42,351 nucleotides of DNA from the sequence record NC_025430.1; one strand, 5' to 3'. How positions within the stretch are numbered: position 1 is the first letter of the stretch; each line of letters starts with the position of its first letter. Below, one piece after another: positions 3,798 to 40,240 of the stretch. The notes below the pieces were generated by a model that searched no databases, was not told where the DNA came from, and worked only from the letters and a program-made list of their open reading frames with translations. Made by a program: the position numbers and the translations under genes. Origin of the DNA: Escherichia phage vB_EcoM-ep3.

Positions 3798-5216
3798 ATG
3801 GGCGTAATACTTAGGGACTATCAATCCGACATTATCAATAAGGCGCGCCTTTCTATGCGGCGCAACCGCCGCGTGTTATTGCAGGCACCAACAGGCGCGG
3901 GCAAAACTGCGCTGGCGTCATACATGGCTGGGGAAACATCGGCCAAAGGCCAGCAGGTGTGGTTTATTTGCCACCGCGCTGAACTGGTATTACAGACCAG
4001 TTTGACATTCAGGAAGTTCGGCATTGACCACGGCTTTATTGCCGCAGGCTATCCCATGAACCTGCGCGCCGGGGTGCAGGTGTGCAGCATCGACACCCTG
4101 AAAAACCGCCTGCACACCCTGCCAGCTCCTAAGCTGGCCATCATGGACGAAGCGCACCACTGTGGCGCGGCTGGATGGGCGCGCGTCAACGCCTGGCTGT
4201 TCGAGAATGGCGCGTATGTAATCGGCCTGTCAGCCACGCCAAAGCGCCTGGACGGCACCGGCCTGGATGACCACTTTGATGACATCGTGTTGGGGCCATC
4301 GGTGCGCTGGCTGATGGATAACGGCCACCTGTCTGATTATCGCATGTTCTGCCCGGACATCCCTGACATGAAGGGTGTACGCAAACAGATGGGCGATTTC
4401 TCAAAAGGAGAAACCGCCGAGAAGATGGATAAGCCGAAACTAACCGGCAACATCATCAGCCACTGGCTGAAATACGCCAGGGGCATGAAAACGGTTGGCT
4501 TTGCGGTCAACATCGCGCACAGCCGCCACTTAACGCAGGCATTCATTGATTCAGGCATCCGCGCCGCGCACCTGGATGGCGGCACCGATAAGGCGGAACG
4601 CAAGCGCATCATTCAGGACTATGCCAACGACAACCTGGATGTGATTTTCAACGTGTCGCTGTTCGGTGAAGGTTTCGACCTGTCAGCTATCGCACAGACT
4701 GACGTGACGATTGACTGCCTGATTGACGCGCAGCCCACACAATCATTGTCGCTGGTTTTGCAGAAAGATGGCCGCGTGTTGCGACCGTCCAAAGGCAAAA
4801 CCGCCATCATCCTGGACCACGCAGGCAATGCGCTGCGTCATGGCTTCCCTGACGATGAACGGGAATGGTCACTGGCTGGCGATGATAGCGGCAGCAAATC
4901 CAGCAGTGCTGGTGGTCCACCGCCGCCAGTCATCTGCAAAGGCTGTTTCAACGCCATCCGCCGACCACTGCCGCCGAAGTGCCCGCACTGCCAGAAGGAA
5001 CTACAGGCCGAAGCCAAAGAAATTGAAGTGGCAGAAGGAGAACTGCGCGAAATGGACGAACGCGCCAAAGAAAGCCTGCGCGCCAAGATGAGGCGCGAGG
5101 AGGACGCTTGCAAGGATATTGGCGCACTTACTGCCCTGGCGATGAAACGCGGGCTGCCGAACCCATCAGGGTGGGCCATAGCGAAGATGGGTGGAAGAAG
5201 ATTTAAGCGCAAATAG
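3798..5216 (+). CDS. Superfamily-2 DEAD/DEAH-box DNA helicase with C-terminal zinc ribbon
   Basis: 472 aa. Motif I APTGAGKT, motif II MDEAHH, motif III SATP, motif VI QKDGRVLR, and C-terminal CKGC...CPHC. Confidence 0.85.
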   Translation: MGVILRDYQSDIINKARLSMRRNRRVLLQAPTGAGKTALASYMAGETSAKGQQVWFICHRAELVLQTSLTFRKFGIDHGFIAAGYPMNLRAGVQVCSIDTLKNRLHTLPAPKLAIMDEAHHCGAAGWARVNAWLFENGAYVIGLSATPKRLDGTGLDDHFDDIVLGPSVRWLMDNGHLSDYRMFCPDIPDMKGVRKQMGDFSKGETAEKMDKPKLTGNIISHWLKYARGMKTVGFAVNIAHSRHLTQAFIDSGIRAAHLDGGTDKAERKRIIQDYANDNLDVIFNVSLFGEGFDLSAIAQTDVTIDCLIDAQPTQSLSLVLQKDGRVLRPSKGKTAIILDHAGNALRHGFPDDEREWSLAGDDSGSKSSSAGGPPPPVICKGCFNAIRRPLPPKCPHCQKELQAEAKEIEVAEGELREMDERAKESLRAKMRREEDACKDIGALTALAMKRGLPNPSGWAIAKMGGRRFKRK

Positions 5217-6425: not shown

Positions 6426-6529
6426 AACTGTTCCTGCGTGGCGTCCTGGCGATGCTGCATGATGAATTATTCTGGCTGCTGGTGGTGCTGGCCGCCTGTG
6501 CTTACCTGGTGGGGGTTATCTATGGCTAA
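6422..6529 (+). CDS. 35-aa hydrophobic membrane peptide (below the ORF-track cutoff)
   Basis: MKLFLRGVLAMLHDELFWLLVVLAACAYLVGVIYG. Its ATG overlaps the upstream stop (ATGA) and its TAA overlaps the next ATG (ATGGCTAA). Confidence 0.5.
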   Translation: MKLFLRGVLAMLHDELFWLLVVLAACAYLVGVIYG

Positions 6530-6932
6530 CAAAGAACACGCGTTGCAGAACGCAATCCGCAACGCACTGGCGGGTCGCTGCCTGCTGTTTCGCGCCAACG
6601 TGGGCAAGGCGTACACCAGCAATGACGTGGTGAAGGTGCCGCGCCAGATGCCGGTTGTGATGGGGCCGCGTGACGTGCTGCTGAAAAACGCCAGGCCGTT
6701 TGACACCGGGCTGCCGCCAGGGTTTTCCGACCTGTTCGGCCTGGTCAGTGTAGAAATCACACCTGACATGGTGGGGCAGAAAGTGGCCATCTTCACCGGC
6801 CTGGAAGTCAAAGACGGTGCCCGCGTGTCACCATTGCAGCGAAACTTCATCAACGCGGTGAACGACAACGGGGGCCGCGCCGGTGTTGTGCGGTCAGTGG
6901 ATGACGCTGAAAAACTGGTGTTCGGAAAATGA
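6522..6932 (+). CDS. VRR-NUC domain nuclease (PD-(D/E)XK, resolvase-like)
   Basis: The start is moved to ATG 6522 (MANKEHALQNAIRNAL...). Motifs GFSDLFGL and GLEVK fit the VRR-NUC D...E.K signature. Confidence 0.65.
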   Translation: MANKEHALQNAIRNALAGRCLLFRANVGKAYTSNDVVKVPRQMPVVMGPRDVLLKNARPFDTGLPPGFSDLFGLVSVEITPDMVGQKVAIFTGLEVKDGARVSPLQRNFINAVNDNGGRAGVVRSVDDAEKLVFGK

Positions 6933-7172: not shown

Positions 7173-7405
7173 ATATTTTCAAAGTAGCAATGCAGCGGCT
7201 GGTTGACGCCTGGAAGTTATCAGCCAGGGAAATCAGCCTGGGTTTTCAAATGGCGCTGGTGCGCGCTGGCTGGCGTCCAAAGGTGCGGTCAATGCAAGTG
7301 GTGCTGGACTATCCGAAGCCAGGGCCACGCCGTTCACGCTTCACCGGCATTGCAGCCATGCGCCGTGAAGCACGCCGCAAACGTAACCGGAGGCACGCAG
7401 CATGA
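7169..7405 (+). CDS. Hypothetical protein with a strongly basic C-terminus
   Basis: 78 aa with translationally coupled overlaps at both ends. The C-terminus is RREARRKRNRRHAA. Confidence 0.6.
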   Translation: MNIFKVAMQRLVDAWKLSAREISLGFQMALVRAGWRPKVRSMQVVLDYPKPGPRRSRFTGIAAMRREARRKRNRRHAA

Positions 7406-7626
7406 ACCCGGTAGACTTCATCAAAAAACAAGTCATGGCCGAACTGGTGAAGCAAGGCGCATCACCTGGCACAGCGCAGCACGCGGCTGACTACGCGGCG
7501 CAACAGTACCGCACCACGTCAGCCATCGGCAAAGACCCGTTCGCTGAACTGATACGCCTGGCAGGCGCAATGGCCATGAAGCACCAGGCCGGTTTCCGCT
7601 TCGTGATGCCGCGCGCATCAAAATGA
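7402..7626 (+). CDS. Hypothetical protein
   Basis: 74 aa. It has an ATGA overlap with the upstream gene and genome-typical codon usage. Confidence 0.6.
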   Translation: MNPVDFIKKQVMAELVKQGASPGTAQHAADYAAQQYRTTSAIGKDPFAELIRLAGAMAMKHQAGFRFVMPRASK

Positions 7627-7648
7627 CGTAAGATTATTTCAAAAGGTA

Positions 7649-7677
7649 TTTACTTTCGGAAATGCGCCCTGTACTAT
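7649..7677 (+). promoter_or_regulatory. Candidate sigma70-type promoter
   Basis: TTTACT (7649-7654), 17-nt spacer, TACTAT (7672-7677). It lies 30 nt upstream of the HTH gene start. Confidence 0.5.
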
Positions 7678-7706
7678 GGGCGCATTGTTATTACGAGGCT
7701 ATTACT

Positions 7707-7895
7707 ATGGACGAAAGGACCGAACGACTTCACAACATTATGGCTGAACATGGCTTAACCTGCCGCGACGTTGGCCGTTTACTTGGGCGCACTGAACAAA
7801 CGGTGCTTATCTGGCGCTGTAAGGGCGGGAAAGTCATTCCGACCCACCAGCTTGAATTGCTTGAACTGAAACTGAACGCGCAGGCGGAAAAATGA
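7707..7895 (+). CDS. Small Cro/Xre-like helix-turn-helix regulator
   Basis: The start is moved to ATG 7707, 8 nt after a GAGG RBS. The HTH segment is LTCRDVGRLLGRTEQTVLIWRCKG. Confidence 0.55.
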   Translation: MDERTERLHNIMAEHGLTCRDVGRLLGRTEQTVLIWRCKGGKVIPTHQLELLELKLNAQAEK

Positions 7896-8122
7896 ACGCC
7901 TGTACCTGGCAGCCAACCACAGTGACGCTGCAAGATGGGCGCGAAGTGTTGAGCGATAGCCGGGAATGGTTGCTGGAATGCGAAGCCAAATACGTTCTGA
8001 ATCAGCCAACCATTGAAGCACGGCGCACCCTGCTGGCAGCGATAGAAAAACGGCGCGGCGCAACAGCCCGCGAAGAACTAGAACAACGCGCACTGGCCAT
8101 ATGGCGCGCTAACAGGCCATAA
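7892..8122 (+). CDS. Hypothetical protein
   Basis: 76 aa with an ATGA overlap to the upstream gene. It immediately precedes the primase-helicase. Confidence 0.6.
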   Translation: MNACTWQPTTVTLQDGREVLSDSREWLLECEAKYVLNQPTIEARRTLLAAIEKRRGATAREELEQRALAIWRANRP

Positions 8123-8134
8123 AATCGGGGTTCT

Positions 8135-10444
8135 ATGAGTGCACAACAAAACTATAAGGATTTGACCGAACAGGAAATTGCAGAAGCACTTTCCTACATC
8201 GACGCCGGTTGCGACCGTGAAACATGGGTGCGCATGGCGATGGCGGTTAAATCGGAACTAGGCGACGGCGGTTTCACCGTCTGGAATGACTGGTCACGCC
8301 AGTCTGACAAGTACAACAGCAAAGACGCGCGCGACACCTGGAAATCAGTGAAGCGTCACGGCGGCATTGGCATTGGCACCCTGATTGGTGAGGCGCAGCA
8401 GTTCGGCTTTTCCCTGAACGATGCAGAACGCACGCCGCTGACAGCGGAAGAAATCGACGCACGCAAGCGCAAGCGCGAAGCCGAAGAAAAGGCAGAGCAG
8501 CAGCGCCGCGCCGAACGTATGGCGCAGGCAGCCGAACAGGCGCGCAACATATGGGAATCAGCCACCGAACTGGAAGGCGATGAACACCCCTATTTGCAGC
8601 GCAAGCAGGTGCAGGCGTTCGGCCTGCGCGTTGGGCGGTTCTGGACCGAAAAGCGCAGCATTGATGGTGCGCTACTGGTTCCTGTGCGTAACATTGACGG
8701 GCAGATCACCAGCTTGCAGGCCATCTTCCCGAACGAAAACCCACAGCTAGGGCGTGACCGTGATTATTTGCCTGGCGGCCAGAAGCGCGGATGCTTCCAC
8801 GTCATAGGCGGCAAGCCGACTGGCGGAAGCCCGGTTATTGTCATCTGTGAGGGCTATTCAACCGGCGCGTCAATCCACCAGGCAACCGGCTACTGCGTTG
8901 TAGTGGCGTTTGATGCCGGTAACGTTCCGACCGTGGCCAAGTTGATGCGCCAGCAGTTCGGACGCGCAACAATTGTTGTGGCAGCCGATAACGACCAGTG
9001 GCACGAAGATGGCAAGCAAAATGATGGCGTTCACTACGCGCGCCAGGCCGCAACCACATGCGGTGGCCTGCTGGTGGTTCCGAAGTTCGCCGCATTAAGC
9101 GACAAGCCGACCGACTTTAACGACCTGCACAACCTGCAAGGGCTGGCAGAAGTTAAGCGGCAGATTAACGCCGCAATACCTGAACCGGCAAATGACAACT
9201 TTCTGCCGCTGGATGCAACGGTCAACCCGTTCATGTACCCGCACATGAGCCACCAGCAAAAGCCATTAAGCACCTGGGAAAACCTGGAATGGCTGCTGGA
9301 ACAGTACGGCATCACGGCGCGATATAACGAAATCAGCAAAGATGTGGTGGTGACCATTCCAGGGCGTGACTACGGCGTTGACGCTGCGGCCAACTGTTCC
9401 CTGGCGGAAGTTTCCAGCCTGTGTGCCCGCAACGGTATGCCAAAAGGTGATGTGGGCGACTACATCAAGCTGATTGGCGTGGCCAACCGTTACAACCCGG
9501 CTGCTGATTTCATCACGTCACGGCCATGGGATGGCGTCAGCCGCATTTATGACCTGGTTGACACCCTGACCACGCCGGAAGGCTTTGACCGCAGCCTGGT
9601 GCTGATGATGGTGCGCCGCTGGCTGATTTCTGCCGTGGCTGCCGTCATGAAGCCAACCGGGTTCTGGTCCAAAGGCGTCCTGGTGTTACAGGGTGACCAG
9701 TCATTGGGGAAAACGTCCTGGTTTAAAGCACTGCTGCCGCCGACCATGCGCGACCTGGTGAAAGATGGCGCGACCATCGACCCTAGCAACAAAGACAGCG
9801 TGACCACCGCGATTGGCCACTGGATGGTTGAGCTGGGCGAACTAGATGCAACGTTCCGCAAGGCTGACATTGCCAGGCTGAAATCCTTCATCAGTTCTGA
9901 CGTGGACATGCTGCGCCGCCCTTATGACCGGCTTGAATCGAAGTACCAGCGCCGAACGGTGTTTTTTGCGTCAGTGAACCCCAAACACTTCCTGGCCGAT
10001 GACACCGGGAACGTTCGCTGGTGGACCATTCCGGTGACCGGCGTGAACTACGCCCACGACATCGACACGCAACAGTTATGGGCAGAAGTGGCGCAACTGT
10101 ACCGTGACGGCGAACGCTGGTGGCTGGATCGTGATGAAGAAGCCATGCTGGAAGGCGTCAACAAGGAACACGAATCCATTGACCCGGTAGAGGAAATGAT
10201 ACTGGCGCGCTTTGAGTGGGGCAGCGAACGCATCAGCGCCTACCGCGAACATACCGCCAGCCAGGTGTTGCAGGAAATCGGATTTGATAAGCCGAACAAG
10301 TCACAGGCCACGCATTGCAGTAACGTGCTGCGCAAGCTGACCGGGCAGGAACCGCGCAAGACGAAAAACGGGCGGTTCTTCAACCTGCCGCCGAAGGTGT
10401 TGCAGCCGGATTACCGGCGACCAGATGACAATTCACCGTTTTGA
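8135..10444 (+). CDS. Bifunctional DNA primase-helicase (PriCT-2 / Toprim / VirE-D5-like P-loop)
   Basis: 769 aa. N-terminal PriCT-2-like segment (ETWVRMAMAVKSELGDGGFTVWNDWS), Toprim (VIVICEGYSTGASI...VVAADND) and C-terminal Walker A GDQSLGKT. Confidence 0.9.
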   Translation: MSAQQNYKDLTEQEIAEALSYIDAGCDRETWVRMAMAVKSELGDGGFTVWNDWSRQSDKYNSKDARDTWKSVKRHGGIGIGTLIGEAQQFGFSLNDAERTPLTAEEIDARKRKREAEEKAEQQRRAERMAQAAEQARNIWESATELEGDEHPYLQRKQVQAFGLRVGRFWTEKRSIDGALLVPVRNIDGQITSLQAIFPNENPQLGRDRDYLPGGQKRGCFHVIGGKPTGGSPVIVICEGYSTGASIHQATGYCVVVAFDAGNVPTVAKLMRQQFGRATIVVAADNDQWHEDGKQNDGVHYARQAATTCGGLLVVPKFAALSDKPTDFNDLHNLQGLAEVKRQINAAIPEPANDNFLPLDATVNPFMYPHMSHQQKPLSTWENLEWLLEQYGITARYNEISKDVVVTIPGRDYGVDAAANCSLAEVSSLCARNGMPKGDVGDYIKLIGVANRYNPAADFITSRPWDGVSRIYDLVDTLTTPEGFDRSLVLMMVRRWLISAVAAVMKPTGFWSKGVLVLQGDQSLGKTSWFKALLPPTMRDLVKDGATIDPSNKDSVTTAIGHWMVELGELDATFRKADIARLKSFISSDVDMLRRPYDRLESKYQRRTVFFASVNPKHFLADDTGNVRWWTIPVTGVNYAHDIDTQQLWAEVAQLYRDGERWWLDRDEEAMLEGVNKEHESIDPVEEMILARFEWGSERISAYREHTASQVLQEIGFDKPNKSQATHCSNVLRKLTGQEPRKTKNGRFFNLPPKVLQPDYRRPDDNSPF

Positions 10445-10567: not shown

Positions 10568-11545
10568 ATGGGTAGCATTGTGAATAAATACGAATTGCAT
10601 TTAGGTGATTGCCTGGAAGTTATGAAGTCTATTCCAGCCGGTAGCGTTGATTTGGTTCTGTGTGATCCGCCGTATGGCACCGCTGGCGGAATGGGAAAGG
10701 GTGAAGAACGCTATTCACGAATTGCGAACGCTGAATGGGATAACGCTATTTCTCCGCAGGCCATTTTTGAAGAATGCAACCGCGTTTTGCGAACTAACGG
10801 CGCTCTTATTCTGTTCAGCCAGGAACCTTACACCAGCAAGTTAATCACAGCGGCGCATGGAAATCTGCCTTTCAGTTATCGACTAATGTGGCTGAAAGAC
10901 CATTTCTCTAACTCGCTGTTGGTAAATAAAGCGCCTGTTTCATACTTTGAAGATTTAGTGGTGTTCTTCAAGAAATATGACACGCTGGCACAGCATCCGC
11001 TAAGGGATTATGCCAAAAAAATCATGGAATACATTGGCAGAAATATAAAGCAGATAAACACTGATTTAGGTCACAGGCGCGCGGAACACTTTTTTTATGT
11101 TGAATCAACGCAGTTCGGGCTGTGTACTGAAAAGACATACAACCAGATTATTGCGCACTATGGGCTTAGTGTGTGTGACTGGCTTATGACTTATGCTGAA
11201 ATGTTAGAAATTGACCGCAGGTTTGCCCGCAGGTTTAACCTGGCGGATGGTGCAAAATACAAATCTAACGTTCTTCAGTACAAAAAGGATTATACCGGCC
11301 TTCACCCAACACAGAAGCCGGTAGCACTGCTGGCTGACATCATCAGGACATATTCAAACCCTGGCGAAACGGTTCTAGATTTCACTATGGGGAGCGGGTC
11401 AACAGGAGTCGCCTGCATCAATGAAGGCCGTAACTTCATAGGAATTGAACTTGATGAAACCTATTTCCAGACAGCGCAGGGGCGCATAATGGAAGCAGCA
11501 GCCGCAAACGATAACCAGGCAAGTAGCAATTCTGTTGTAGCATAA
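10568..11545 (+). CDS. DNA methyltransferase (N6_N4 family, beta class; DPPY motif suggests N6-adenine)
   Basis: 325 aa. Motif IV LCDPPYGT lies near the N-terminus and motif I DFTMGSGSTGVAC near the C-terminus. The region is visibly more A+T-rich than its neighbours. Confidence 0.85.
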   Translation: MGSIVNKYELHLGDCLEVMKSIPAGSVDLVLCDPPYGTAGGMGKGEERYSRIANAEWDNAISPQAIFEECNRVLRTNGALILFSQEPYTSKLITAAHGNLPFSYRLMWLKDHFSNSLLVNKAPVSYFEDLVVFFKKYDTLAQHPLRDYAKKIMEYIGRNIKQINTDLGHRRAEHFFYVESTQFGLCTEKTYNQIIAHYGLSVCDWLMTYAEMLEIDRRFARRFNLADGAKYKSNVLQYKKDYTGLHPTQKPVALLADIIRTYSNPGETVLDFTMGSGSTGVACINEGRNFIGIELDETYFQTAQGRIMEAAAANDNQASSNSVVA

Positions 11546-11592: not shown

Positions 11593-12420
11593 ATGAAACA
11601 AGTAACGATTGACAACGTGCGCGAGCGCATAGCGGAACTGGAAATGGTCAACAGCCACGGTGAACTGTCACTGCGCGGCGAATTTGAACTGGCGTGTTTG
11701 CGGATGCTGGCCGATTCAATGGGCGGCGTTGATGATGACGTGCGCAACGTGGTGGCCCTGCTGGAAAACAACGAATGGGCCGAGCACTGCACTAAAACAG
11801 AGCTTGGCCAGCGCCTGGAAAGCGAAATAACCCGCCTGGTTGGGGACGTGCAGCCAGTGCCGGTGGTAAGCGATGCTGACCCATCACTAAACGCCATGAT
11901 GCGTGCGCTTGATGCGTTCTATGCTGATGACTATGTGCCGGAACGTGCCATGCTGGCAGCTTTCAGAATCCTGCTGGCGGATGTGCGTGAAAAGCCAGCG
12001 CCGGTGGTAACTGATGATAGGCTGCTGGAAAACCTTGAAACGCGCATCAAAAGCCTGGAAATCGGTGAACGCAAAGGCGCATTGAGCACGCATCAGGAAA
12101 TCAGCCTTAAGGCGTATCGCCTGACTGTCCAGTGTCTGCGTTCGTCTGCCATCAGTGATGAAACAGACAACACCGCGCAGCAGTTCGAATCGTTGGCTGG
12201 CATCAATGCGAACAAACATCATGACCAGTGGGTGAATTGCAGCGAAAGGCTTCCAGATCGCTTCCGTGACGTTCCTGTGATGCTTTCTGATGGTTCCCAG
12301 CGAGTTGGGCGCATCAATCATAAAGATACCTGGCTGATTGCCAGTTACCACCATACAAAGCACCAATATACAGGCGACGTTGTTATGTGGTTCGACACGC
12401 CTAATCCCACCAGCGAGTGA
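11593..12420 (+). CDS. Hypothetical protein with C-terminal DUF551-like domain
   Basis: 275 aa with a GAGGT RBS. The C-terminus WVNCSERLPD...VMWFDTPNP fits the DUF551 pattern (W....RLP......W.P.P). Confidence 0.6.
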   Translation: MKQVTIDNVRERIAELEMVNSHGELSLRGEFELACLRMLADSMGGVDDDVRNVVALLENNEWAEHCTKTELGQRLESEITRLVGDVQPVPVVSDADPSLNAMMRALDAFYADDYVPERAMLAAFRILLADVREKPAPVVTDDRLLENLETRIKSLEIGERKGALSTHQEISLKAYRLTVQCLRSSAISDETDNTAQQFESLAGINANKHHDQWVNCSERLPDRFRDVPVMLSDGSQRVGRINHKDTWLIASYHHTKHQYTGDVVMWFDTPNPTSE

Positions 12421-12749
12421 AGCGGCAAGCCATGAGCCTGGCAACCGATATTCTGTGGCGCGCTTTTGTTAAGCAGGCGAAACAGAAGCCAACGCCAAAA
12501 TCCGCACCAGTGGAGGCAAAACCAAAACCGGAAGTCACGGCAATCAGCAACCGCAACCTGCACCTGGCGCGCGTCCCTGGCTGTCAGCGTCTGGCTTGGG
12601 GTTGGCAGGTTACGTGCATTGATGGCAAGCAGAAACACAAACTGGGAACCTTCAAAACAATGCCACGCGCACGCATAGCATGGCGACTTTGGCACCTGTG
12701 GAAGCGCCGGGGTTTTGCCGACATCCCAACCGGACCAAACCACGCCTAA
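12417..12749 (+). CDS. Hypothetical protein (possible AP2-like DNA-binding motif)
   Basis: GTG start overlapping the upstream stop (GTGA); an alternative ATG is at 12432. The N-terminus is Lys/Pro-rich. WGWQVTCIDGKQKHKLGTFKT resembles an AP2-type strand-turn motif, but weakly. Confidence 0.45.
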   Translation: MKRQAMSLATDILWRAFVKQAKQKPTPKSAPVEAKPKPEVTAISNRNLHLARVPGCQRLAWGWQVTCIDGKQKHKLGTFKTMPRARIAWRLWHLWKRRGFADIPTGPNHA

Positions 12750-12755
12750 ACACTA

Positions 12756-12778
12756 ACCGCCTTCGGGCGGTTTTTTAT
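12756..12778 (+). terminator. Rho-independent terminator
   Basis: ACCGCC-TTCG-GGCGGT followed by TTTTTTATT. Confidence 0.8.
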
Positions 12779-12838
12779 TGCGCAAAAGATGACAAGTATG
12801 ACAAAATAACAACGTCACCAATAACAGAGGAATTCATC

Positions 12839-13120
12839 ATGATTGAACAAAAGCTAGACCGCATCATTGAACTGCTGGAAATCATCGCGGAAGCACAACC
12901 GAAACCGCGCGTTAGTCGTAGTCAAATCAGTGATGCAAAGAGCATTATCGTTTCGCACCGAGAACAACTGAGAGGAAAGCGCATCACGTTTGGTGAATTC
13001 TGTGAAATCATTGGCGTGGAGAATTCAAAGCAAAACCGATTAAAGTTTGGTGCTGCAATGACTGAGGCTGGAGTCAAACAATACAGAACAAAAAACGCAC
13101 GTTATTATTTATTTGCATGA
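12839..13120 (+). CDS. Hypothetical protein (93 aa)
   Basis: The start is moved to ATG 12839, behind an AGAGGA RBS. The ORF-track start at 12680 would read through the terminator at 12756-12778. A GTCACC core (12814-12819) sits just upstream. Confidence 0.6.
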   Translation: MIEQKLDRIIELLEIIAEAQPKPRVSRSQISDAKSIIVSHREQLRGKRITFGEFCEIIGVENSKQNRLKFGAAMTEAGVKQYRTKNARYYLFA

Positions 13121-13140
13121 TTACTTTTATCTATTGATAC

Positions 13141-13164
13141 AGCGCCTTAATGGCGCTTTTTTTG
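13141..13164 (+). terminator. Rho-independent terminator ending the early rightward region
   Basis: AGCGCC-TTAAT-GGCGCT followed by TTTTTTGTTT. Confidence 0.75.
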
Positions 13165-13188
13165 TTTATGAGCGACTCAATAAAAAAG

Positions 13189-13448
13189 TTGGTCACCGTA
13201 GTCACCTGGTAGTCACCGCTTAAACCAATGATATATATACGAAATGACCAAGTGACCAAGGGAGACAAGGAAATAAAAGATTTTAAAAGGTGACAAAAGC
13301 ATTGAGCGCATTAGTACCTAACAGCAACTTTATGAAAACATGGTCGAGTTGGTCACCAAGCCCATAAAAACGGCGCTTTTTCCTTAAAAATCAAGGTGAC
13401 CGAGAAAAACACCGCTTGTCTCCCTGTAGTCACCTATTTCTGGTCACC
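13189..13448. repeat. Iteron-like cluster of GGTNACC / GTCACC cores with A/T tracts
   Basis: GGTNACC at 13191, 13351, 13395 and 13442. GTAGTCACC at 13198, 13209 and 13426. Tandem TGACCAAG at 13245 and 13253. GGTGAC at 13289. Flanking inverted repeat GGGAGACAAG (13260-13269) / CTTGTCTCCC (13415-13424). Confidence 0.8.
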
Positions 13449-13469
13449 GTTCATCTTTTCGGCTACAAT
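13441..13469 (+). promoter_or_regulatory. Candidate promoter reading into the Mor-like/lysis genes
   Basis: TGGTCA (13441-13446, overlapping the last iteron), 17-nt spacer, TACAAT (13464-13469). Confidence 0.5.
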
Positions 13470-13507
13470 CCCTATATTGACTTTTATTTATAATTATTGG
13501 GGGTTAC

Positions 13508-13942
13508 ATGGAATTACCGCGCACTGTGCAGGAAATAGCTGACGTTATTGGCCGTGAACGTGCGCTATATCTTATCGGACAACTACCAAAATTGTGGGTG
13601 CCATCGCAGCAGTACCACAAAGTAATTTTGTATGTGCCAAAGCGGATTCGGCCCAATGACCCCCTGGTGAAAATTCTTGGATGGAGTGACGCCAGCAAGA
13701 TGGTGCAGCACTTCGGTGGTGAAATGCTTCACCCGGCTAATTGCGAATACATTTACCGCCGTTTCATCCACAGCAGCATCAAGCGGATGCACAGCGAAGG
13801 AATGGACGCAAAAGCCATTGCGGAACTGCTGGACGTTTCAGAACGCACCGTGAAGCGGCACTGCACTGACAAACCCCACAAAGACACATCACCTGCAAAT
13901 GACAACACTCCCGAACGACTACTAACCGCTATGGGGCAATGA
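13508..13942 (+). CDS. Mor/C-family-like transcriptional activator (C-terminal HTH)
   Basis: 144 aa. HFGGEMLHPANCEYIYRRFIHSSIKRMHSEGMDAKAIAELLDVSERTVKRH parallels the Mu Mor core (LGGGQVYIP...RD..I...F.G.N..EL....GV....VY). It sits at the early/late boundary. Confidence 0.55.
   Translation: MELPRTVQEIADVIGRERALYLIGQLPKLWVPSQQYHKVILYVPKRIRPNDPLVKILGWSDASKMVQHFGGEMLHPANCEYIYRRFIHSSIKRMHSEGMDAKAIAELLDVSERTVKRHCTDKPHKDTSPANDNTPERLLTAMGQ
13868..13884 (+). promoter_or_regulatory. Late-motif copy 1 (15/17: GACAAACCCCACAAAGA)
   Basis: Inside the 3' end of the Mor-like gene. AACACT follows 19 nt downstream (13904-13909). It ends 62 nt before the holin ATG. Confidence 0.5.
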
Positions 13943-31493: not shown

Positions 31494-32921
31494 ATGGCAG
31501 GTACTGATTTTTTACATGGCGTGGAGGTGCTGGAAATTGATTCCGGTTCACGCGTCATTCAAACCGTTAAATCAAGCGTCATCGGTATTGTTGGCACCGC
31601 GCCAAATGCTGACCCTGACGCATTCCCGCTAAACACCCCAACCCTGATTGCAGGCAGCCAGCGCGAAGCGGCCAAACTGGACATGCTTGGCACCGGTGAA
31701 GGCACCCTTCCCAAAGCACTGGATGCCATCCTGGACCAGATCGGCGCTGTGGTCATCGTTGTGCGTGTTGAAGAAGGCGAAAACGAAGCCGCAACGCTGG
31801 CCAACATCATGGGTGGAGTTAACGCATCAACCGGCAAATATGAAGGCGTTCACGCACTGCTTGGCGCTGAATCCGTTGTGGGCTACTCGCCGCGCATTCT
31901 GTGCGTTCCCGGCTTCACGCATACCCGCGTTCAGGATGGCGTCACCGCTATCACCATCGGCAACGGCGGCAGCGGTTACACCGAAGCGCCTACGGTCACC
32001 CTGGCTGGTGGCGGCGGTGGTTCTGGCGCAACTGCGCAAGCAACCGTGGTTGGTGGCGTCATCACCAAAATCATCGTCACCAACGCTGGCATGGGTTACA
32101 CCAAAGCGCCAACCGTCACCATCACTGGCGGCAACGGCACCGGCGCAACTGCAACCGCATCCGTTGGTATCGCAGCCAATGCCGTGGTTTCTGAACTGCT
32201 TGGCATCGCCAACCGCCTGCGTGCTGTCATCATCGCTGACGGTCCAAACACCAACGACGCTGACGCCATCGCCTACCGCAAAGACTTTGGCAGCAAGCGC
32301 GTTTATGTGGTTGACCCAAAAGTGCTGGTGCTTGACGAGGATGGCACCACGATTACTGACTGGGCATCGCCGCGCGTGGCTGGACTGATTGCCCGCATCG
32401 ACAACGAGCGCGGTTTCTGGTGGTCACCATCAAACCAGGAAATCTATGGCATCCAGGGCACGGCCAGAACCATTGATTTCACCCTGGGTGACACGTCCAG
32501 CCGTGCAAACCTGCTGAACGAAAACGAAGTCACCACCATCATTCGCCAGGACGGTTTCCGCCTGTGGGGCAACCGCACCACTTCCAGCGATCCGAAATGG
32601 GCGTTTCTGTGCGTTGTTCGCACGGCTGACATCATCAATGACAGCCTGTTGCGTGCACACCTGTGGGCCGTAGACCGTGGCATCACCAAACAATACGTCA
32701 ATGACGTGATTGAAGGCGTGAACGCGTACCTGCGCAACCTGGTGAGCCTGGGCGCAATTCTTGGCGGCACGTGTTGGGCTGACCCTGACTTAAATACTGC
32801 TGACCAAATCGCTGACGGTAAGGTATACTTTGATTTTGATTTCACGCCTGTTTATCCGGCTGAACACATTATCTTCCGCAGCCAATTGACCAACGATTAT
32901 ATTAGTGAGGTATTCGAATAA
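31494..32921 (+). CDS. Tail sheath protein (P2 gpFI-like) with an internal duplicated insertion
   Basis: 475 aa with a sheath-type N-terminus ([32 protein letters not shown]) and C-terminus. Residues ~155-225 carry two copies of G.GYT.APTVT..GG.G.GATA.A.V. Confidence 0.85.
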
Positions 32922-39364: not shown

Positions 39365-40240
39365 ATGGCTACTATCGGGCAACTGTATAAATCAAAACAA
39401 ACCGCAGCAACGCCGCGCAAGGTGTTTTGGGTGCCGCTGGCTGAACTGTATGTGGAAGATGGCTACAACATCCGCGACGTGGACCAGGCGCACGTTGAAG
39501 AATTCCGCGATGCGTACCTGGCCGGTGAATATGTGCCGCCGCTGACCGTGGAAGTGACGCAGCAGGGCATCAAGGTGATTGATGGCCACCACCGCTTTGC
39601 CGGTGCAAAGATGGCCGCAGAAACCGGCCTGGAACTGCGCCTGGAAGTGAACGACATCACCGGCACCAGTGAGGCTGACAAAATCGCGCTGATGGTCACC
39701 AGCAGCCAGGGCAAGCCGCTGGAACCGCTGGAACGCGCCAAAGCCTATTCGCGCCTGAAAGCGCAGGGCTGGACCAATGACGAGATAGCCAAGAAGGTGA
39801 AGCGCAGCCCGTCAGACGTGGCCAACATGCTGGCCCTGGCTGAATGCCCGGAACCCATCAAAGACATGGTGCGCGGTGGCCAGATGTCCTACGTGACCGC
39901 CACCGAACTGACCCGCCAGCACGGCACCGAAGCCGAAGCCGTGGCCGCACAGGCGCTGGAAGAAGCCAAAGCCGCTGGCAAGGATAAAGTAACAAAGAAA
40001 TTCACCGAACCGAAGGCACCAAAAGCGCCGAAGGCCAAGCCGGAAGCAATCCAGCCACCGTTCGGCAAAGACAAGCTGACGCGCCTGGCTGACCTGGCCG
40101 TGCAAATCGAACTGGTCCACAGCGATGAACGCCTGGAAGATGCCGAGCCTGACGAATCCATGACCCTGCGCGCACCTGCTGGCGTGGTGCGTGAATTCAT
40201 GGCGCTGGTGGCTGACTACGTGGGCGGGGTGCCGGAATGA
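39365..40240 (+). CDS. ParB N-terminal (ParB/sulfiredoxin-like nuclease) domain protein
   Basis: 291 aa. VPLAELYVEDGYNIRD...VIDGHHRFAGAKMA is the ParB-N motif. A central HTH-like region (TNDEIAKKVKRSPSDVANMLAL) is followed by a Lys/Pro/Ala-rich linker. Confidence 0.75.
   Translation: MATIGQLYKSKQTAATPRKVFWVPLAELYVEDGYNIRDVDQAHVEEFRDAYLAGEYVPPLTVEVTQQGIKVIDGHHRFAGAKMAAETGLELRLEVNDITGTSEADKIALMVTSSQGKPLEPLERAKAYSRLKAQGWTNDEIAKKVKRSPSDVANMLALAECPEPIKDMVRGGQMSYVTATELTRQHGTEAEAVAAQALEEAKAAGKDKVTKKFTEPKAPKAPKAKPEAIQPPFGKDKLTRLADLAVQIELVHSDERLEDAEPDESMTLRAPAGVVREFMALVADYVGGVPE

Follow-up and report, generated by a model that had tools for sequence, protein, structure and literature searches.

The 387-bp gap at positions 13121-13507 of Escherichia phage vB_EcoM-ep3 (hereafter ep3) contains an array of short repeats that is probably a functional replication origin of the iteron type, served by the primase-helicase of the phage. 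Replication would start at this array. A preliminary description of the same DNA had left two readings side by side, an iteron-type origin used by the primase-helicase and an operator array; the former is favoured by the recurrent architecture of the array in related phages and by an exclusive co-variation between the repeats and the C-terminal wing of the primase-helicase, which suggests that the specificity of the initiator matches the repeats. The kind of origin is known, and is so far unmarked in the Jilinvirus/Iiscvirinae group: an origin annotation is absent from all nine GenBank records opened for this group, and the replication of these phages is undiscussed in the searchable literature. 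All positions refer to the window, the complete stretch of 42,351 bp that was analysed.

Genomic setting of the gap

The 42-kb genome in the window is that of a myovirus in the genus Jilinvirus (subfamily Iiscvirinae), most closely related to Salmonella phage PT1 and to the Escherichia phages ECOO78, Bas97 and Alux-21. The gap is bordered on the left by the orphan gene 12839-13120 and on the right by the gene of the late activator, in the following setting:

12755-12772, + strand: early-operon terminator, conserved, directly before the array in relatives
12839-13157, + strand: window-specific insertion of about 380 bp, comprising the orphan gene 12839-13120 and its own terminator (13141-13157)
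13508-13942, + strand: gene of the late transcriptional activator (PHROG 836), conserved as right neighbour of the array

The insertion sits between the early-operon terminator and the array, is outside the origin and looks like a moron-type insertion at its edge. The orphan gene codes for a protein of 93 aa with no significant match in Pfam or PHROG and none in the four whole genomes compared (ECO1230-10, MQ-4, ECOO78 and Arya), and in the alignment the insertion is missing at the corresponding position in PT1 and KA2-1. A scan of 12700-13600 against Rfam yielded zero matches at E <= 1, hence the region is not a known RNA element. GC skew was uninformative at the scale of the window; it would mostly mirror transcription, since the long ORFs taken as genes are all on the + strand from 3798 onward.

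From the primase-helicase gene to the candidate origin the genome is variable, and this part contains the N6/N4 methyltransferase 10568-11545, which is 100% identical in ECOO78, with no match in ECO1230-10, Arya and MQ-4. The protein 5264-5989 matches Nmad5 (nucleotide modification associated domain 5, E = 2e-36) and is common only to ECO1230-10 (76% identity), with no match in ECOO78, Arya and MQ-4, which hints at a variable DNA-modification module.

Enrichment and structure of the repeats

Eight perfect GTCACC/GGTGAC cores and three one-mismatch copies lie within 260 bp of the gap. The hexamers occur 56 times in the whole 42,351 bp; the expectation is 0.51 (Poisson lambda) per 387 bp, and the probability of at least eight is 7e-8, or about 8e-6 after correction for about 109 windows. 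The enrichment claimed in the preliminary description is thereby borne out, with one correction: GGTNACC had been expected about once per 4 kb, and the count of 25 in the window corresponds to about one per 1.7 kb. Other 400-bp windows hold at most four cores, and in 2000 shuffles of the gap the count of the most frequent 6-mer reached seven once and eight never. The remaining tiles with a high top-6-mer count fall inside long ORFs taken as genes, the strongest being a CAG triplet repeat. The repeat cluster in the gap is real and above chance. The k-mer control also recorded six copies of GGCGCA/TGCGCC in about 390 bp (7301-7687), spread across small early genes.

A weight matrix for the repeat class of ep3 (class A, see below) was built from 58 sites of ep3 and four relatives, and sites scoring at least 7.5 were taken as array sites. 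The matrix yields an asymmetric unit of 8-9 bp, GGTGAC-N-A-(a), equivalent to (t)T-N-GTCACC on the other strand, and adds to the hexamer an invariant A/T two bases outside it. The palindrome GGTNACC, earlier regarded as the unit, gives way to this asymmetric form; the palindromes are unit copies whose N happens to be G. Nine sites in the gap score at least 12, versus four isolated sites, all coding, in the other 42 kb. The gap holds 11 matrix sites, seven forward (13192, 13201, 13212, 13352, 13418, 13429 and 13443) and four reverse (13251, 13261, 13289 and 13395), arranged as follows:

13185-13449, no strand: iteron array, candidate origin core, with 11 sites scoring at least 7.5 in the class-A weight matrix
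13190-13217, + strand: left block of three direct iterons, TGGTCACC (13190-13197), TAGTCACC (13199-13206) and TAGTCACC (13210-13217)
13251-13296, - strand: reverse iterons AGTGACCA (13251-13258), GGAGACAA (13261-13268) and GGTGACAA (13289-13296)
13266-13349, no strand: AT-rich stretch between the opposed iteron sets, including the reverse site 13289-13296
13350-13357, + strand: forward iteron TGGTCACC, score 13.7, at the centre of the 11-bp symmetric TTGGTCACCAA
13395-13402, - strand: reverse iteron GGTGACCG, score 12.0, without the flanking A
13416-13448, + strand: right block of three forward iterons, TTGTCTCC (13416-13423), TAGTCACC (13427-13434) and TGGTCACC (13441-13448)

The iterons of the left block (scores 16.1, 15.0 and 15.5; core spacing 9 and 11 bp) align to four to five direct copies in relatives. 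In the reverse set, which aligns to GGTGACtaagGGTGACaagg of relatives, AGTGACCA and GGAGACAA each carry one mismatch and GGTGACAA is the top site (score 19.0). This left reverse pair is degenerate in ep3 compared with relatives: the TGACCAAG tandem, which falls within the set as does GGGAGACAAG, aligns with two perfect GGTGAC sites in them. The forward iteron 13350-13357 is kept in PT1, Arya and KA2-1. In the right block (scores 9.8, 16.1 and 15.4) TTGTCTCC has one mismatch and corresponds to CTTGTCTCCC, and the iterons 13427-13434 and 13441-13448 are invariant among four class-A phages. GC content is 0.30-0.40 at 13220-13345 and in the stretch 13266-13349, against 0.53 for the window, and a further AT-rich patch is located at 13220-13244; the stretch 13266-13349 is a candidate DNA-unwinding region.

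The elements named in the preliminary description were recovered at their positions: GGTNACC at 13191, 13351, 13395 and 13442, GTAGTCACC at 13198, 13209 and 13426, the TGACCAAG tandem at 13245 and 13253, GGTGAC at 13289 and the promoter TGGTCA-N17-TACAAT at 13441-13469. Several interpretations changed. The extended palindrome at 13349 is an 11-mer (TTGGTCACCAA) and not a 12-mer. Both arms of the 10-bp inverted repeat, GGGAGACAAG at 13260 and CTTGTCTCCC at 13415, are present, but what had been described as a bracketing of the cores consists of two opposed one-mismatch iterons. Likewise, the GTCACC at 12814 exists but does not qualify as an array core, as it misses the flanking T and scores below 6, under the threshold; it may have arisen by chance or may be a degraded relic on the left side of the inserted gene.

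Arrays in related phages

In each of the eight GenBank relatives whose gap was read directly, it lies upstream of the late activator and measures about 390-430 bp. The arrays of PT1, Bas97, Alux-21, ECOO78, KA2-1 and Arya comprise 12-13 GTCACC cores, ordered as in ep3, in which some array sites are decayed or turned over according to the alignment. Among four class-A phages, 62% of the iteron columns are invariant versus 29% of the spacer columns (Fisher P = 1.5e-7), a contrast that is somewhat inflated by the tendency of aligners to align repeats.

That the cluster consists of chance or compositional BstEII-type restriction sites, or of methylase targets, read by no protein, is close to untenable. 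GGTNACC is indeed a palindrome resembling a restriction site and the window encodes an N6/N4 methylase, but the Poisson probability of about 7e-8, the asymmetric unit with its conserved flanking base and the conservation of the sites while the spacers diverge all speak against this explanation. The idea of methylase targets was also rejected on the distribution of the enzyme: the methylase 10568-11545 is not common to the phages that share the array (no match in Arya), and PT1 annotates a different product, an EaA protein, at its position.

The repeat itself differs between lineages. ECO1230-10 has an ep3-like layout with the different repeat TGGGACTATC, and Serratia phage MQ-4 carries GGTAAC. 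With 61 IMG/VR loci fetched via the activator protein, the repeat classes by lineage are GGTGAC, TGGGAC(T/A)A, AGTGAC, AGTGTA, GGTTACA, GGTAAC and GGGTAC, each assigned by the commonest 6-mer, of which some loci (L021, L028) hold few copies. Class A is defined by GGTGAC and class B by TGGGAC, with the sequence TTGGGACTA as contrasted with TNGTCACC.

The layout recurs. Usually, in the relatives mapped, a pair of sites is followed by an AT-rich run, two to four sites in opposite orientation and the activator promoter. An AT-rich run comes after the reverse pair in almost every relative, and opposed repeat sets around an AT-rich stretch are present in the relatives whose gap was read directly and in most others that bear a primase-helicase. 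The contig L022 displays a minimal form (7714-7893 in its gap), composed of two GGGAC and two GTCCC sites around a stretch of about 150 bp with an AT-rich palindromic core. No array was found upstream of the activator at several loci with no primase-helicase match in the fetched DNA (such as L050-L055 and L066-L073); at L023 and L045 an array is present although the fetched DNA has no such match.

A cluster of GGGAC at 4523-4650 of L022 was considered as a relocated array and rejected as a coding tandem repeat. The region 4480-4700 is made up of coding 12-bp units that repeatedly contain GGGAC and mimic an iteron cluster, a pitfall for origin searches based on k-mers.

Primase-helicases of about 900 aa occur in Serratia phage MQ-4 (37050-39743 of L010) and in the IMG/VR contigs L019, L030 and L041, whose arrays consist of GGTTACA or GGTAAC repeats. 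The C-terminal part of the MQ-4 protein, the only one of these that was aligned, is essentially unrelated to that of ep3. This suggests that the subgroup combines a different reading domain with the same origin layout.

Co-variation of the repeats with the primase-helicase

The proposed initiator and the parts of it that concern the repeats are:

8135-10444, + strand: primase-helicase, proposed initiator, 769 aa, composed of PriCT_2, Toprim, a VapE-like helicase and a C-terminal winged helix
10184-10387, + strand: predicted C-terminal winged-helix domain, residues about 684-751 (AlphaFold2)
10355-10387, + strand: wing hairpin RKTKNGRFFNL, residues 741-751, with the class-diagnostic T743/K744

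A search of the PDB with the whole sequence found only the VapE-like helicase 7pds (PriRep1), and Pfam assigned the helicase to PF05272. The C-terminal 115 residues were modelled with AlphaFold2 from an alignment of 34 sequences taken from the full-length homologue search, which returned 663 homologues as against two matches for the C-terminus alone. The model has a mean pLDDT of 71 (80-88 over the core) and a predicted topology of helix, strand, helix, helix, strand, hairpin and strand, that is, a winged helix. A fold search with this model matched generic winged-helix folds only, the P4 domain not being among the matches. A PDB profile search with the C-terminal 115 aa found nothing, and hence the sequence does not connect this part of the protein with the origin-binding domain of P4.

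Primase-helicases from seven class-A and ten class-B loci were aligned, together with four others. Among the 17 proteins, the mean identity within classes exceeded that between classes by 0.20 at residues 726-750, while every other 25-residue window of the protein lay between -0.06 and +0.01; none of 10,000 label permutations reached the wing signal. The repeat class thus tracks residues about 726-760, the wing of the predicted C-terminal winged helix, and the covarying residues lie at the tip of its hairpin. Class A is diagnosed by T743/K744 (RKTKNGRFF, KRTKAGRFF) and class B by S/G (RKSGSNRLF, RKSGSRRLF), whereas the class-C wings are heterogeneous. Pairs of different class that are 81-89% identical over residues 1-700 drop to 41-53% in a 17-residue wing segment, and pairs of the same class with only 34-39% identity in the body rise to 62-82% in it. 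The wing signal is therefore not a by-product of phylogeny, as wing identity follows class against body identity. At least two independent switches between A and B are present, in addition to the A/C pair L017 and L036. In post-hoc checks, L022 has a class-B-like wing (RKSGSKRLF) and a gap with GGGAC sites, and L016 has a class-E-like wing and three copies of AGTGTA upstream of the activator.

Seven control proteins were put through the same test where they lay within the 8-kb flanks, and more distant genes were compared in four whole genomes. The maximum class deltas were:

Primase-helicase: 0.21, at about residue 736
Resolvase (6438-6932): -0.01
HTH "repressor" (7662-7895): -0.02
Protein 7892-8122: 0.01
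Late activator: 0.02
Small terminase: 0.05
Large terminase: 0.06
Portal: 0.06

From this pattern, the primase-helicase very probably reads the sites of the array, and we propose that the wing tip RKTKNGRFF (residues 741-749) contributes to sequence discrimination.

One of the distant genes encodes a ParB-like protein (39365-40240). Since many centromeres consist of arrayed short repeats, the array might be a parS-like centromere for this protein. We regard this as exceedingly unlikely. The protein is 97% identical between ep3, with its GGTGAC repeats, and the class-B phage ECO1230-10, with TGGGAC repeats; its HTH segment is nearly unchanged, with one conservative K-to-R change between the two, and class B is set apart from three class-A phages by only four columns, which are scattered.

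Promoter of the late activator and regulatory alternatives

The right end of the array adjoins the promoter of the late activator gene:

13441-13469, + strand: sigma-70-like promoter TGGTCA-N17-TACAAT of the late activator gene, with the -35 inside the last iteron

The + strand of the gap contains no other good sigma-70 match. Most relatives whose gap was read keep the -10 GCTACAAT; several have variant hexamers. The preliminary description had noted that the last core overlaps the -35, which holds for ep3 and the other enteric class-A phages but not for all lineages: the last iteron and the -10 are 15 nt apart in ep3, 26 nt apart in ECO1230-10 and about 60 nt apart in L022. Because this spacing varies, occlusion of the -35 cannot be general. 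The position of the array beside the promoter is conserved and may bring in a regulatory coupling, which the origin explanation does not need.

Downstream of the -10, the leader 13470-13507 (ATTGACTTTTATTTATAATTA...GGGGG) is almost invariant across the enteric Jilinviruses up to the start codon of the late activator, even in ECO1230-10 with its other repeats, and is far more conserved than the remaining gap. A regulatory RNA or protein site could account for this, as could a second promoter element.

The overlap with the -35 of the only good promoter in the gap, and the invariable location of the array directly upstream of the late activator gene, would suit an array of operators through which a small early DNA-binding protein represses or times the late activator promoter, with no role in replication. 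The candidates for such a protein do not bear this out. The HTH protein 7662-7895, the protein 7892-8122 and the activator itself are devoid of a class-linked segment (-0.02, 0.01 and 0.02), and the first of them is 93% identical in the class-B phage ECO1230-10 and 57% in the class-A phage Arya. The product of 12839-13120 is absent from four of four genomes, including those of the array-bearing class-A phages ECOO78 and Arya, and that of 12417-12749 has a poor match or none in several relatives. Moreover, 11-13 sites over 260 bp around an AT-rich stretch far exceed the needs of an operator, and the overlap with the -35 varies as described. An operator array of this kind is very unlikely; the early proposal of one acting through a small early protein or ParB is unsupported, given the missing co-variation of the HTH protein, 7892-8122, the late activator and the ParB-like protein, and, for 12839-13120 and 12417-12749, their absence or poor conservation in relatives that keep the array.

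Another explanation accepts the primase-helicase as the reader and has it bind the sites mainly for control (handcuffing, titration or gating of the late promoter), with synthesis starting elsewhere. Co-variation identifies the reader of the sites and not the outcome of the binding, the last site covers the -35 in class-A enteric phages, and there is a precedent in P4, which needs both ori and the distant crr, the latter located just downstream of the alpha gene. Yet the window holds no second cluster, its outside sites scoring at least 12 being four isolated coding matches. A patch of seven GTCACC/GGTGAC cores at 31941-32529, in the gene 31494-32921, was considered as a crr-like site and rejected, as coding explains it: six of the seven cores are frame-0 codons, five of them GTC-ACC for Val-Thr. 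Opposed sets around AT-rich DNA are, in addition, the standard anatomy of a melting site (PMC6092414). A control function in place of an origin is accordingly rated as unlikely.

Proposed mechanism and significance

Three generic features of an iteron origin are present in the array: clustered short sites, an AT-rich stretch and, by co-variation, a class-matched initiator. In the origin reading, the C-terminal winged helix of the primase-helicase would dock on the opposed iteron sets, whose opposite orientations would position helicase assemblies on both sides of the AT-rich DNA, by analogy with origins served by initiator helicases of the SF3 or D5/VapE type. The AT-rich DNA at about 13266-13349 would then melt, the primase-helicase would load as a helicase, and its Toprim primase part would prime synthesis. 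Melting, loading and priming are modelled on P4 alpha and on Pri-Rep of PICI/SaPI, with reference to Fig. 2 of PMC6092414 and to the annotation of the P4 record.

Expression of the late activator is possibly coupled to the occupancy of the origin in the ep3 lineage. Beyond this, the origin might double as a switch for late expression and, separately, the wing-tip residues might constitute a natural recognition code; both ideas are conceivable though doubtful. For the switch, primase-helicase bound to the promoter-proximal iterons would occlude the -35 in ep3, and the promoter of the late activator would fire once the initiator leaves the origin or newly replicated copies titrate it. The code would read TK-x-GRFF for GGTGAC and SGS-x-R-[L/V/Y]-F for TGGGAC. 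If true, late transcription would be coupled to replication in a way undescribed for the Jilinvirus/Iiscvirinae group, and the wing code would let related phages keep their origins mutually incompatible.

With a proposed origin and a named reader, the little-studied phages of this group, among them the BASEL phage Bas97 and therapy candidates, gain a concrete, testable annotation. The swaps of the repeat between lineages, matched by a few wing residues, would mean that initiator and origin specificity change together, and pairs of wing and repeat could guide the engineering of orthogonal phage or plasmid replicons. Since origins of this kind are well known, knowledge is refined and not overturned.

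Comparison with known replication systems

Lambda O with ori-lambda, RepA of pPS10 and pi of R6K resemble the ep3 system in having initiator-binding repeats beside an AT-rich unwinding element, and several initiators of the lambda and plasmid type also use winged-helix reading heads. In contrast to the ep3 protein, they are not helicase-primases and must recruit the DnaB of the host. Their iterons are about 19-22 bp long and mostly direct, and the lambda origin lies inside the O gene, which likewise sets them apart from ep3.

The origins of E. coli PICIs consist of two iteron sets around an AT-rich region beside pri-rep, according to the legend of Fig. 2 in PMC6092414. PICI and SaPI elements share with ep3 an element-encoded primase and helicase, lineage-specific iterons and an AT-rich putative melting region; the likeness of the initiators concerns the general primase and helicase classes. 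The PICI origin is located immediately downstream of pri-rep, and in a satellite, whereas the ep3 array lies 2.7 kb beyond the stop codon of the primase-helicase, separated from it by accessory genes and a terminator, and beside the late activator gene.

Satellite P4 offers the most extensive parallels. Like the ep3 primase-helicase, alpha is a single protein of about 770 aa with a Toprim primase, a helicase and a C-terminal end for DNA binding (putative in ep3), and in the P4 ori, as in the ep3 array, iterons of 8 bp lie in either orientation around AT-rich DNA. In P4, a winged-helix domain at the C-terminus of alpha reportedly binds the type-1 repeats. These repeats, annotated as TGTTCACC in ori and again in crr in the P4 record NC_001609, are strikingly similar to the ep3 unit T-N-GTCACC. 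Both the P4 ori and the ep3 array are situated between the early region and the operon of a late activator, the P4 ori upstream of sid-delta-psu (delta being the late activator) and the ep3 array upstream of its own late activator. BLASTP aligned alpha and the ep3 protein over their Toprim regions (residues 178-419 against 160-378), with 30% identity and E = 1e-18, and gave no other significant segment, the C-terminal domains being without detectable sequence similarity. The ep3 helicase is VapE-like, with PriRep1 (7pds) as its closest solved relative, and differs in this from alpha; P4 has two iteron clusters, ori and crr, against a single one in the ep3 window; and ep3 is a full-size myovirus while P4 is a satellite. 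With similarity in the Toprim region only, a VapE-type helicase and a single cluster, the ep3 array does not belong to the P4 system itself. P4 is nonetheless the closest functional analogue of the ep3 array.
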